DNA of 64,000 nucleotides from an uncultured Chlamydiales bacterium (GTDB lineage Bacteria; Chlamydiota; Chlamydiia; Chlamydiales; Rhabdochlamydiaceae), in the NCBI GenBank assembly GCA_963709365.1, contig CAVPVU010000002.1, forward strand, positions 319,594 through 383,593, read 5' to 3'. The notes under the pieces were generated by a model. It did not search any database. It was not told where the DNA came from and worked only from the letters and a program-made list of their open reading frames with translations. The translations under genes and the position numbers were made by a program. This document shows positions 61,554-62,918 of the stretch, in pieces. How positions within the stretch are numbered: the stretch's first letter is position 1; each line of letters begins with the position of its first letter.

Positions 61554-62918
61554 ATGGCAGCGGTAGCGAGAAGAACCTTAGATACATTAAAGCCCTACGA
61601 TGTGTTGGGAATCATTGTCGGCATGAGTGCAAAGCCGCATGTTTGCGCCCGTGTTTGCAAGGCATTTAACCACGTGGTTGTCCAATCTATAGCTTACAAC
61701 ATGCTGAGAGCAGCGTATAAGAGGTATCCCTGCCTTGAAGCTGTGGCTAATGTCAAATTTAATGAACTCAAGAAAGCCTTGCAGCGCGATCCTACAGATA
61801 GGCTGGTCGTCATGGCTGTTTACGAAACGATCGTCATGGACGACTCCTTCATTGCAACTTCTGTCCCACACTTCTCGCCTCTTCCTTGCGCCCCACTTGG
61901 CAGATTGCATCCAGAATGGATGATCGAATTGGCAAAGCCGAATAGTACTCTGGCAGTATTCGAACATGTTGCGCAAAATGATCGACAGATTGACAAAGCG
62001 TTTCGTCATCTTCGGAAGGCTCTTACATTTGCGGCTCCTGAGCTGCGACATTGTATCCAGTTAGCCCGCGATGTTTATCTTTGGATGATAGGCAATAGCG
62101 ATCTACTCTCTATGAGAAATTTAGAGCTTGATAGAAAAGGACTGACGGAGATTCCCTCATGCATCGGGTTATTTGCGAATGTAGAGGAGCTCAACGTTGA
62201 TGGGAACTTTCTTACCCAAGTGCCTGTTGAAATTGAGGAGTGCAGGAAGTTGGAGAAGTTTCAGGCAGACGAAAATGCTATCTCAGATCCGCATTCAATC
62301 GCACCGCTTTTTGCCTGTCGGAAACTAGTCGAGCTATCGTTGGGTGCAAATGGAGTTAAGCTATTTCCTACTATCCCACCTAAGCGATGGGCGCGTCTTG
62401 AGTACATCGATCTTGCCGGAAATCTACTTTCGAGATTTCCAGAAGGCATTGGAAATTGTACTAGCTTGGCAGAATTACGGCTTTATAACAACAGGATCGC
62501 TTGCATTCCTGATGAATTGAACAAGTGCACAAGATTAAAAGTTTTAAGTATCGCTTATAACCGGCTTACGGTTGTAAATCCTGTGGTTGGAGCGCTTACG
62601 CGTCTGCGTACATTCAGACTAGATTATAATATGATAGAGGTTTTGCCACCTGAAATGAGCGGCTGTGCCCGTTTGACTAAGCTCGATCTCTCTCACAATC
62701 CACTCAAAATGAGCCGAGCGGCGATTCTAAGCCTGGTGCCCTTGGTAAATGAGGCGGGCTTAGAAACCTCGGTGACCCGCGCGCTTTCTCTCACTGCATC
62801 GCAGCAGGCGCAGTTAAGTGAGCCGCAAGACGAAGAGGGCACAGGTGCTGGTTCAGGCTCGGGCTCAGCTGAACCCGCTTCTAAGCGCCAACGCACCGAA
62901 GAGAAAAAATCTCATTAA
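61554..62918 (+). CDS. Eukaryotic-like F-box / LRR protein with a Gly/Ser-rich linker and a basic NLS-like C-terminus
   Basis: LKPYDVLGIIVGMSAKPHVCARVCKAFNHVV fits the F-box consensus (LPxEiLxxIfxxL...VCKrWrxLv). At least 8 LRRs follow the pattern LxxLxLxxNxLxxLPxEIxxCxxL. The tail reads GAGSGSGSAEPASKRQRTEEKKSH. Confidence 0.6.
   Translation: MAAVARRTLDTLKPYDVLGIIVGMSAKPHVCARVCKAFNHVVVQSIAYNMLRAAYKRYPCLEAVANVKFNELKKALQRDPTDRLVVMAVYETIVMDDSFIATSVPHFSPLPCAPLGRLHPEWMIELAKPNSTLAVFEHVAQNDRQIDKAFRHLRKALTFAAPELRHCIQLARDVYLWMIGNSDLLSMRNLELDRKGLTEIPSCIGLFANVEELNVDGNFLTQVPVEIEECRKLEKFQADENAISDPHSIAPLFACRKLVELSLGANGVKLFPTIPPKRWARLEYIDLAGNLLSRFPEGIGNCTSLAELRLYNNRIACIPDELNKCTRLKVLSIAYNRLTVVNPVVGALTRLRTFRLDYNMIEVLPPEMSGCARLTKLDLSHNPLKMSRAAILSLVPLVNEAGLETSVTRALSLTASQQAQLSEPQDEEGTGAGSGSGSAEPASKRQRTEEKKSH

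Follow-up and report, generated by a model that had tools for sequence, protein, structure and literature searches.

Is the leucine-rich repeat (LRR) protein encoded between rfaE and htpX in this chlamydial genome a mimic of eukaryotic ubiquitin-ligase adaptors, or is it a host-directed LRR protein of another kind? The window, which is the whole 64,000-nucleotide stretch of DNA analysed, had been described in an earlier note. The note presented this gene product as an F-box plus LRR protein with an NLS-like tail, and as a candidate nucleomodulin imitating a ubiquitin ligase. The protein, referred to below as the target, is here considered a plausible host-directed LRR effector. The favoured reading, held at slightly better than even confidence, is that it is a lineage-specific LRR adaptor of an environmental chlamydia which is delivered into the eukaryotic host cell.

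The gene and its distribution

61554..62918, + strand: LRR-protein ORF, complete, 454 aa, stop codon within the coordinates

The ORF is intact, begins at the earliest start codon possible after a stop and had been correctly delimited in the earlier note. Among ~15 billion proteins, a single full-length orthologue, P0002, was found, with 64% identity to the target; there are in addition a fragment, P0017, and a database protein identical to the target (100%). The identity with P0002 spans the whole length of the protein and the domain order is kept. The layout of the neighbouring genes is also that of the target, in a comparison of strands and spacing rather than of the identity of the neighbours. 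The full-length identity together with the shared layout argues for purifying selection on the target.

An exhaustive HMMER search with residues 1-200 against 1.84 billion representative proteins retrieved only the target itself, P0017 and a spurious repeat protein, P0018. The full-length alignment found no relative in a genome collection of species representatives from which the source genome is absent, and no match in a metagenome scan. As judged by these searches, the family is restricted to this lineage.

The genome is assigned to the Chlamydiota, as the fused GlyQS of the window matches PRK14908, LpxB matches PRK01021 and the best matches of HtpX (66%) and RfaE are chlamydial MAGs. All known chlamydiae are obligate intracellular (PMC4209131). 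These markers thus support the view of the target as an LRR protein from an obligate intracellular lineage.

The leucine-rich repeats

62112..62708, + strand: nine LRRs of 23-25 residues each (residues 187-385), of the SHOC2/LRRC8/Leptospira LIC type

At least eight LRRs had been predicted and nine are present, as indicated by the Pfam LRR families and by the strands of the AlphaFold model. In Pfam, LRR_8 (1.4e-20), LRR_4 (2.5e-19) and LRR_1 are above threshold, while LRR_6 reaches only E 0.0096, under its cut-off. The model contains nine beta-strands, spaced 23-25 residues apart across residues 189-378 (pLDDT 60-88), and the final LRR serves as the C-terminal cap. The repeats form a tandem LxxLxLxxNxL solenoid of the typical 23-24-residue class. 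The best matches in a PDB sequence search are LRRD1, LIC11098 and SHOC2 (1e-38 to 2e-45 for SHOC2 and LRRD1), and those of Foldseek are LRRC8A, LIC10831 and SHOC2, with a probability of 1.00.

The FBXL proteins (SKP2, FBXL2/3/5, TIR1, COI1), with which the target had been classed, share the order proposed for it, in which the LRR solenoid comes after an N-terminal F-box. Their LRRs are cysteine-containing, ~26 residues long and directly after the F-box, whereas the 23-residue LRRs of the target follow a 140-residue helical domain. No FBXL protein is found among the top PDB sequence or Foldseek matches, and no FBXL protein, Skp2 or TIR1 is among the Foldseek top 50. The FBXL-type assignment fails on the class of LRR, since repeats of 23-25 residues and SHOC2/LRRC8 type are not of the cysteine-containing ~26-residue kind.

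Membership of known bacterial LRR families was also considered. The Xanthomonas proteins XopL, XopAC and XopAE and the Leptospira LIC proteins are the best NCBIfam/PDB matches of the target and have the same 23-residue LRR type, but the matches (62-74 bits against cut-offs of 450-1000) cover the LRRs only and the flanking domains are unrelated. The LRRs of Yersinia YopM, Shigella/Salmonella IpaH, SspH1 and SlrP are shorter than those of the target, at 20-22 residues, and there is no homology outside the LRRs. A C-terminal NEL E3 ligase domain is present in IpaH, SspH and SlrP but not in the target, whose match to the SlrP model (28 bits, with a cut-off of 1113) involves the LRRs alone. The Pfam search of the target found no NEL family, and just 69 residues follow the LRRs. 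Both NEL-type and XopL-type membership were rejected, as the scores are far under the cut-offs and come from the LRRs alone.

The helical cap domain and the tandem array

61692..62111, + strand: helical 'cap' domain (residues 47-186), common to the N-terminus of the array LRR proteins
39990..52862, + strand: tandem array of cap+LRR paralogues, several split or truncated, more closely related to the target than any other genes of the genome

The region between the N-terminal segment and the LRRs had been taken for a ~150-aa spacer, and the LRRs for a class unlike that of the array genes. Neither description holds. Residues 47-186 make up a helical domain that corresponds colinearly to the one at the N-terminus of the array proteins, and the LRRs of both are of the 23-residue form LxxLxLxxNxLxxhPxxhxxCxx, with 30% identity between the target and one array protein. 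BLASTP aligns the LRR region of the target to array proteins at E 4e-33 and 4e-31, and the alignment with array gene 39990 extends from residue 81 through into the LRRs. In a multiple alignment of the target with the array proteins the cap is colinear, and the array paralogues begin opposite ~residue 47. In hhalign the two caps align along their whole length, over 117 columns and with P 3e-4, which at Prob 39% is moderate evidence. The AlphaFold model of the cap is helical (pLDDT 50-78).

The target has the features of array members, namely the N-terminal helical cap and 23-residue LRRs in which position 21 of the repeat is Cys. On the strength of the homologous helical domain and the same LRR class, sequence comparison identifies it as a divergent paralogue of the tandem LRR array. 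When 5.8 billion clusters were searched with the cap-domain profile, the sole matches were the array genes on this contig and a 114-aa fragment, and no cap-domain relative with a recognisable F-box or U-box was found in those clusters. Specific to the target are a 46-aa N-terminal module and the C-terminus, where the hydrophobic helix of the array proteins is replaced by a 55-residue tail.

The rfaE-htpX locus and the palindromic elements

61385..61465, no strand assigned: palindromic element copy 1, CACCGAG/CTCGGTG arms, hairpin of -34.4 kcal/mol, z -7.1
52868..52945, no strand assigned: palindromic element copy 2, hairpin of -37 kcal/mol, z -8.2

The target gene is positioned between rfaE and htpX. 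In other chlamydiae these genes are adjacent or have unrelated genes between them, and the target gene is in none of those loci. The CACCGAG inverted repeats that had been reported on either side of the housekeeping genes exist, are related and fold into hairpins. The two palindromes align and are copies of one element. Copy 1 lies beyond the stop codon of rfaE, on its 3′ side, and 90 nt 5′ of the target start codon, and copy 2 is between the convergent stop codons of glgA and the final array gene.

The earlier note had used these repeats to link the target with the array. The link itself stands, through protein homology and similar codon usage: GC3 is 0.46 for the target, 0.39-0.46 for the array genes and 0.51-0.67 for most housekeeping genes. 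The palindromes add nothing to it, because each lies where a plus-strand transcription unit has its 3′ end, and an element of the copy 1 type seems to be absent 5′ of the orthologue. The suggestion that they bracket a mobile housekeeping segment was rejected, as the rplI-hldD-rfaE order and the adjacency of htpX are ancestral in other chlamydiae.

The N-terminal module and the F-box question

61554..61691, + strand: private N-terminal module (residues 1-46), without array counterpart

A full mimic would place a true F-box on host SKP1, recruit SCF substrates through the LRRs and act in the nucleus by means of a working NLS. As an alternative, the target may be an LRR effector without ubiquitin-ligase function, in which the 46 residues consist only of a signal for secretion and of helices for chaperone binding or capping, and the F-box likeness arose by chance. 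The position of the module favours the mimic, as it is N-terminal to the LRRs and is exactly what the array paralogues lack.

The F-box-like peptide quoted in the earlier note, LKPYDVLGIIVGMSAKPHVCARVCKAFNHVV, corresponds to residues 12-42. Among the orthologues, residues 1-13 are variable; this would suit a type III signal but is not diagnostic of one. Residues 14-46 are conserved, predicted to be helical and weakly F-box-like. The F-box-like positions are P14, L18, I21, V34-C35-K36 and F38, and the alignment continues to Y48 in the cap domain. The conservation of residues 14-48 among orthologues at F-box core positions weighs against a chance likeness.

Pfam families of the F-box clan (PF00646 / PF12937) gave no match at E<=10, either with the whole target protein or with the N-terminal 69-74 residues of the three orthologues. 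The N-terminal profile found no solved F-box protein in the PDB at E<=10. The profile check thus came back without an F-box hit in both Pfam and the PDB, an outcome that the earlier note had named as refuting its reading, and the claim that the segment fits the F-box consensus is reduced to a weak profile-profile similarity. A purpose-built F-box HMM run without filters gave the target 4.0 bits, approximately fifth of ~1600 ORFs, the top noise being 7.8 bits. Every sequence-to-profile F-box test was negative, which speaks for an effector without ligase function. The Pfam result tells against the mimic all the more because the published chlamydial F-box proteins are all found by those models (PMC4209131).

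Profile-profile comparison gives the evidence on the other side. The F-box profile for hhalign was built from 16 sequences, mostly entered by hand, and was validated by retrieving >50 solved F-box chains. It retrieves even MAX2, COI1 and Legionella AnkB, and the failure of the N-terminus to find any solved F-box protein counts against the mimic in that light. In local mode the N-terminus scores 17.4 against this profile (P 0.0013, Prob 18%), and in global mode 15.5 over 42/44 columns (Prob 3%), both weak. The global alignment is in the canonical register, LP-x-E-hh-x-x-I ... V-[CS]-[KR]-x-W ... LW, the target having F for W and Y for W. The N-terminus also aligns weakly, in register, with the SKP2 F-box. 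The observed scores were matched by none of 1000 column shuffles in local mode and none of 700 in global mode. Natural 50-residue windows reach the score of the target in 0/1500 cases in local mode and 6/2000 in global mode, and that of P0002 in 1/1500 and 0/2000, respectively. A full-length, in-register alignment that outscores all shuffles speaks for the mimic and against coincidence, and the scarcity of natural windows reaching the score also favours the mimic.

Several details detract from this resemblance. Relative to the natural windows, the target and P0002 are at P<=0.003 and P0017 is at noise, so that the signal is entirely lost in one orthologue. The alignment needs two indels, and the Leu of the F-box 'LP' motif is not conserved, being K or R in 2/3 orthologue sequences. 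The array caps carry a comparable motif, VC-x-FF-K, to which the F-box HMM likewise gives 2-3 bits, which shows that such motifs arise by chance in this helical family. The resemblance was moreover singled out in a reading of all 64 kb of the window, which makes the effective P less strong than 1e-3. AlphaFold2 models of the full length (2 sequences) and of residues 1-214 (8 sequences) give the F-box-like segment a pLDDT of 27-37, a low confidence that speaks neither for nor against a three-helix F-box fold. The Cys-containing segment was also considered as an Elongin-BC (SOCS/BC-box) motif, which was rejected because, by eye, it lacks the Leu-x3-Cys spacing.

With HH probabilities of just 3-18%, and with LRRs that are not of the FBXL type, the full ubiquitin-ligase mimic is considered unlikely, despite the abundance of F-box plus LRR effectors in some Chlamydiae (PMC4209131). 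The effector without ligase function is a serious contender, although its chances are put at below even. That the module is a degenerate F-box docking on SKP1 is possible but rather doubtful; it is entertained because the hhalign resemblance, weak as it is, is register-correct, full-length and above all shuffles.

The C-terminal tail

62751..62915, + strand: conserved C-terminal tail (residues 400-454), with a predicted helix, acidic patch EPQDEEG, Gly/Ser linker and basic cluster
62883..62909, + strand: NLS-like basic cluster, K444-R-Q-R-T-E-E-K-K452, read from sequence

The protein ends in ...GTGAGSGSGSAEPASKRQRTEEKKSH, in agreement with the Gly/Ser linker and KRQRTEEKK previously described at the C-terminus. 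With 87% identity to P0002, the tail is the best-conserved segment of the protein, the rest ranging over 54-71%. P0002 has KRQRTEE unchanged, a conservation that also fits the full mimic. AlphaFold pLDDT is <50 from residue 421 onwards. Searched against the PDB, the tail matched artificial Gly/Ser linkers and tags only, and searched alone in a metagenome scan of its own it gave no match. The high conservation could instead reflect recent recombination.

The minimal monopartite NLS pattern is K-K/R-x-K/R. K444-R-Q-R447 fits this pattern and is placed in the segment of pLDDT <50, after the Gly/Ser linker. K[KR]x[KR] is present in 9/40 long ORFs of the window, and within the last 15 residues in the target only. 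By its pattern and position, the tail looks like a nuclear-import signal.

The conservation of the tail also bears on a further alternative, that the LRR protein works on the bacterial side, in the cytoplasm or periplasm or at the surface, and has no role inside the host cell, or that it is a decaying paralogue. Several of the array copies do look broken, but the full-length orthologue, the kept domain order and the highly conserved tail are contrary to decay. A disordered acidic, Gly/Ser and basic tail and SHOC2-like LRRs are typical of eukaryote-facing proteins, and the obligate intracellular life of all known chlamydiae (PMC4209131) is a further point against a purely bacterial role. This alternative is judged quite improbable.

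Comparison with known effector systems

F-box/LRR effector families have been documented in chlamydiae (PMC4209131, Domman et al. 2014), which bears out the precedent in amoeba-associated chlamydiae to which the earlier note appealed. The NEX1a family of Neochlamydia and other putative F-box/LRR effectors of the same phylum (PMC4209131) resemble the target in having a small N-terminal module, a conserved non-LRR region and C-terminal LRRs. Nearby lineage-specific tandem expansions with birth-and-death features are a further likeness, as is a presumed host-directed role. The F-boxes of NEX1a are recognised by Pfam models (PMC4209131), whereas the N-terminus of the target is not. There is no detectable homology of the target to NEX1, since the HMMER search with residues 1-200 found orthologues only. 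The target genome is outside the sequenced Parachlamydiaceae, as reflected in its best HtpX match of 66%. The target also has a conserved NLS-like tail, a feature not described for NEX1.

AnkB of Legionella pneumophila (PDB 5K35) is a bacterial mimic of an SCF adaptor that acts in amoebae and macrophages and combines a small N-terminal F-box with a repeat domain. The repeats of AnkB are ankyrin repeats and its tail is of the CaaX type, in place of the LRRs and basic tail of the target. Its F-box is found at E 1.5e-7 by a profile in which a hand-entered copy of AnkB was included, and at 0.0096 when the query is just one consensus sequence. The target is found by neither.

YopM, IpaH, SspH1 and SlrP are type III-secreted LRR scaffolds. 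Several of these effectors accumulate in the host nucleus and have short terminal segments that bind partners. They provide a functional analogue for a reading of the target as a nucleomodulin made up of LRRs plus a tail.

Proposed role in the host

On the favoured reading of a delivered LRR adaptor, the target would have originated as a divergent paralogue of the neighbouring array, keeping the helical cap and the 23-residue LRR solenoid, and would now be situated between rfaE and htpX. The variable residues 1-13 would carry a secretion signal, and chlamydial LRR families with eukaryote-like N-terminal modules have functional type III signals (PMC4209131). A small helical module would follow, which may be a degenerate F-box on SKP1 or simply a private helical cap. 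The concave face of the LRRs would bind a host protein. The exposed, conserved tail would act as a short linear motif read by the host machinery, importin-alpha-mediated nuclear import being the most obvious candidate for its role.

Implications for chlamydial effector diversity

F-box/LRR effectors and effectors with eukaryote-like repeats are already documented in Chlamydiae and Legionella, and so the target would refine current understanding rather than change it. A stronger version of the F-box reading holds that the N-terminal 46 residues are an extremely divergent true F-box which, with the C-terminal NLS, redirects SCF ubiquitination in the host nucleus. This is thought very unlikely. 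If it were true, entire lineages would be missing from profile-based censuses of bacterial F-box effectors. Effector diversification by scaffold plus exchangeable address tags would then be exemplified by the family, with the hydrophobic helix of the array on one side and the F-box-like head and NLS-like tail of the target on the other. If the F-box signal is real, SCF mimicry would reach beyond the Parachlamydiaceae to another chlamydial lineage, and would include F-boxes invisible to Pfam-based surveys. The target would also join the few candidates for chlamydial LRR effectors directed to the nucleus.

Even without an F-box, the locus illustrates clearly, on a small scale, how effectors diversify. 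A cap+LRR scaffold has been duplicated in tandem, and one copy occupies a variable slot between conserved housekeeping genes and has different terminal modules. Its unusually conserved disordered tail is a concrete short-linear-motif candidate.

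The LRR gene and its orthologues

The LRR protein considered here had been described in an earlier note as a candidate F-box/LRR effector with a nuclear localization signal (NLS)-like tail. Its gene and the related array lie at the following positions:

61554-62918, plus strand: target gene, LRR protein
39990-52862, plus strand: tandem array, roughly 12 genes of cap+LRR type whose 23-residue repeats (LxxLDLSHNQLTTVPAELGQCQQ) are nearly identical

The target ORF is real, encodes 454 aa and opens with the earliest start codon past the upstream stop. A protein 100% identical to it is already on record, from a 2,032,566-bp contig. 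One full-length orthologue was found, the JGI metagenome protein P0002 (64% identity), with a plus-strand gene upstream and a minus-strand gene downstream overlapping the stop codon, as at the target; its neighbours are cut by the contig ends and were compared by layout alone. Residues 1-200, searched exhaustively with HMMER against 1.84 billion representatives, returned only the target itself and P0017, a 163-aa fragment orthologue. P0018, a metagenomic protein of 386 aa with tandem repeats of ~57 residues, matched the motif C-x-QLA-x-x-VYLW of the cap, the helical domain preceding the LRRs, at E 1e-6; this was judged spurious and repeat-amplified. A search with the cap-domain profile found only the same-contig array genes and one 114-aa fragment. 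In these searches the whole cap+LRR family is restricted to this lineage.

Repeats, cap domain and kinship with the array

Pfam reports only LRR families on the target (LRR_8 at 1.4e-20, LRR_4 at 2.5e-19, LRR_1 and LRR_14). The count of at least 8 repeats in the earlier note is borne out by the AlphaFold model, in which nine beta-strands with a spacing of 23-25 residues span residues 189-378 (pLDDT 60-88). The nearest proteins in both sequence and structure are SHOC2, LRRC8, LRRD1, Rsu1 and the Leptospira LIC proteins, and the repeats are of the ordinary 23-24-residue class. They had been thought to differ in class from those of the array. Instead, the two sets belong to the same class, with 30% identity (E 4e-33) and a Cys at repeat position 21 common to both.

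Similarly, the supposed ~150-aa spacer is a helical domain (residues 47-186) that corresponds colinearly to the domain with which the array proteins begin. The BLASTP alignment of the target with the first array gene runs from residue 81 into the LRRs, and a multiple alignment of the target with the array proteins has landmarks in common across the cap. Profile-profile comparison aligns the two caps end to end (117 columns, P 3e-4, Prob 39%). The array proteins start at the equivalent of target residue 47, which, together with the homology of LRRs and cap, indicates that the target is a divergent array paralogue with two private additions. These are the N-terminal 46 residues and a C-terminal tail that replaces the hydrophobic C-terminal helix of the array. 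The GC3 of the target (0.46) is close to that of most array genes (0.39-0.46), in agreement with paralogy; most housekeeping genes have 0.51-0.67.

In the intact array proteins the C-terminal helix is conserved, hydrophobic or amphipathic, with a Cys near its end (...TCWQQMVNLFWFAVSWIKEQALKMVERIAQLCER), and is absent from the target. It may be a membrane-association tag.

The N-terminal module

The peptide originally read as an F-box corresponds to target residues 12-42. No F-box or F-box-like Pfam family was found at E<=10, either with the full target or with the N-termini of the three orthologues (target, P0002 and P0017), and a profile of these N-termini retrieved no solved F-box protein at E<=10. 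Two positive controls were used. A lone 45-residue F-box consensus recovered 54 F-box chains of solved structure, MAX2 and Legionella AnkB among them. The second was a 16-sequence F-box profile, two of its sequences taken directly from database output; it is validated by the proteins it retrieved, namely virtually every F-box protein with a solved structure, mostly at E<1e-5 (MAX2 0.017, COI1 0.13). As an unfiltered HMM, this profile gave the target 4.0 bits, within the noise of ~1600 control ORFs, and the VCTFFK motif of the array proteins 2-3 bits in the same run.

The consensus fit thus fails in the Pfam and solved-structure searches and persists only as a weak, register-correct profile-profile alignment. 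In hhalign, the three-sequence N-terminal profile places P14...V42 on the canonical P...VCKxW...L register (score 17.4, P 0.0013, Prob 18%). The global alignment covers 42/44 F-box columns with one two-residue gap (score 15.5, Prob 3%), and matches F38 to the conserved Trp and the invariant Y48 to the Trp of the terminal 'LW'. The observed scores were reached by no column shuffle, out of 1000 in local and 700 in global mode. Among natural 50-residue windows compared as single sequences, the local score of the target was reached by 0/1500 and that of P0002 by 1/1500; globally, these figures were 6/2000 and 0/2000. P0017 (VCTVF) scores at noise level both locally and globally, and two of the three orthologues have K or R in place of the 'LP' leucine, the residue most strongly conserved in F-boxes. 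The signal also weighs less because it was spotted after reading the whole window and the HH probabilities are low. A genuine SKP1-binding F-box at this N-terminus is rather unlikely.

The C-terminal tail

The Gly/Ser linker and basic end cluster noted previously are present, the target ending in ...EPQDEEGTGAGSGSGSAEPASKRQRTEEKKSH. Over residues 400-454 the target and P0002 share 87% identity; the other segments reach 54-71%. From residue 421 the tail is predicted to be disordered, yet it is highly conserved, which points to a short linear motif that a partner would recognise. The tail conservation could also be a DNA-level effect such as recombination. The tail contains an acidic patch, the Gly/Ser linker and KRQRTEE(K/Q)K, and neither the PDB nor the metagenome scan yielded a homologue of it. 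Its KRQR conforms to the minimal pattern of a monopartite NLS. Such a cluster is present in 9/40 long ORFs of the window, but within the last 15 residues in the target only. Nuclear import would be the obvious candidate function of the tail.

Palindromes and genomic setting

The two CACCGAG palindromes of the window are real and are copies of one ~80-nt element in the same orientation:

52868-52945: palindrome 3' of the last array gene, facing the glgA end
61385-61465: palindrome 3' of rfaE

Both form very stable hairpins (-37 kcal/mol, z about -8, for the first; -34 kcal/mol, z about -7, for the second) with CACCGAG/CTCGGTG repeat arms and a conserved centre, GGAAAATACAAGAATTAATTTTTTCTC. These are the only copies in the 64-kb window, and both stand at 3' ends of plus-strand transcription units. 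The intergenic space upstream of P0002 is 67 nt, as against 191 nt at the target, so the palindrome is probably absent there. The elements look like a terminator-like, REP-like or MITE-like repeat family. They do not seem to mark the ends of one unit joining the two LRR loci, and the rplI-hldD-rfaE block beside htpX is ancestral. The true link between target and array is protein homology.

The encoded proteins mark the window as chlamydial. Its fused GlyQS passes the PRK14908 model, its LpxB is of the chlamydia type, and the closest relatives of its HtpX (66% identity) and RfaE (72%) are from chlamydial MAGs. Elsewhere among chlamydiae htpX and rfaE lie next to each other in convergent orientation, with between 30 nt and 3 kb of unrelated genes separating them, and no relative of the target is encoded at any of the other chlamydial loci compared. 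The target thus sits in a variable slot between conserved housekeeping genes. Among the compared htpX loci (L002-L011; e.g. L004 6885-7661, L009 6877-8170), two share a secreted-looking protein of 258-272 aa in the htpX-rfaE interval. The interval may be a recurrent insertion hot spot.

Two GC3 groups are seen across the window: the LRR genes and a handful of others (e.g. 3473..4501, 24560..25681, 38809..39399) at 0.39-0.47, and most housekeeping genes at 0.51-0.67. The division suggests that the groups differ in expression level or in origin.

Array copies are split or truncated at 41214/41878, 42454/43010, 43647 and 48355/49194, and the stretch at ~44460-45190 is without a long ORF. Two adjacent housekeeping genes are also broken:

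25683-28135, minus strand: mutS in two ORFs, 27311..28135 (model positions 2-259) and 25683..27323 (264-793)
28739-30563, plus strand: dnaG as two ORFs that overlap in different frames, 28739..29257 (model positions 3-110) and 29037..30563 (103-412)

As dnaG is essential yet split, assembly indel errors are likely, and some of the breaks in the array may stem from misassembly of repetitive DNA and not from gene decay. If the mutS break is real, a mutator background would be implied.

Relation to known systems

The FBXL-type assignment is rejected because the LRR class is wrong, FBXL proteins having cysteine-containing repeats of ~26 residues. A NEL-type protein was likewise rejected, as the target is without a NEL domain. 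The chlamydial F-box/LRR families of the NEX1a type start with a small ubiquitination-related domain, followed by a conserved intermediate region and LRRs at the C-terminus; they have been shown to bear functional type III signals (PMC4209131). These are the closest known systems and their layout is like that of the target; however, homology is not detectable and the Pfam F-box models used to define them do not recognise the target. The observations of the earlier note are confirmed in part, and its interpretation is partly supported. The best-supported reading is that the target would serve an obligate intracellular bacterium as an LRR adaptor directed at the host, its terminal modules being exchangeable. 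It most likely belongs to the known class of bacterial LRR proteins that face the eukaryotic host, as a new member restricted to its lineage, and has a putative F-box-like head and a putative NLS-like tail.
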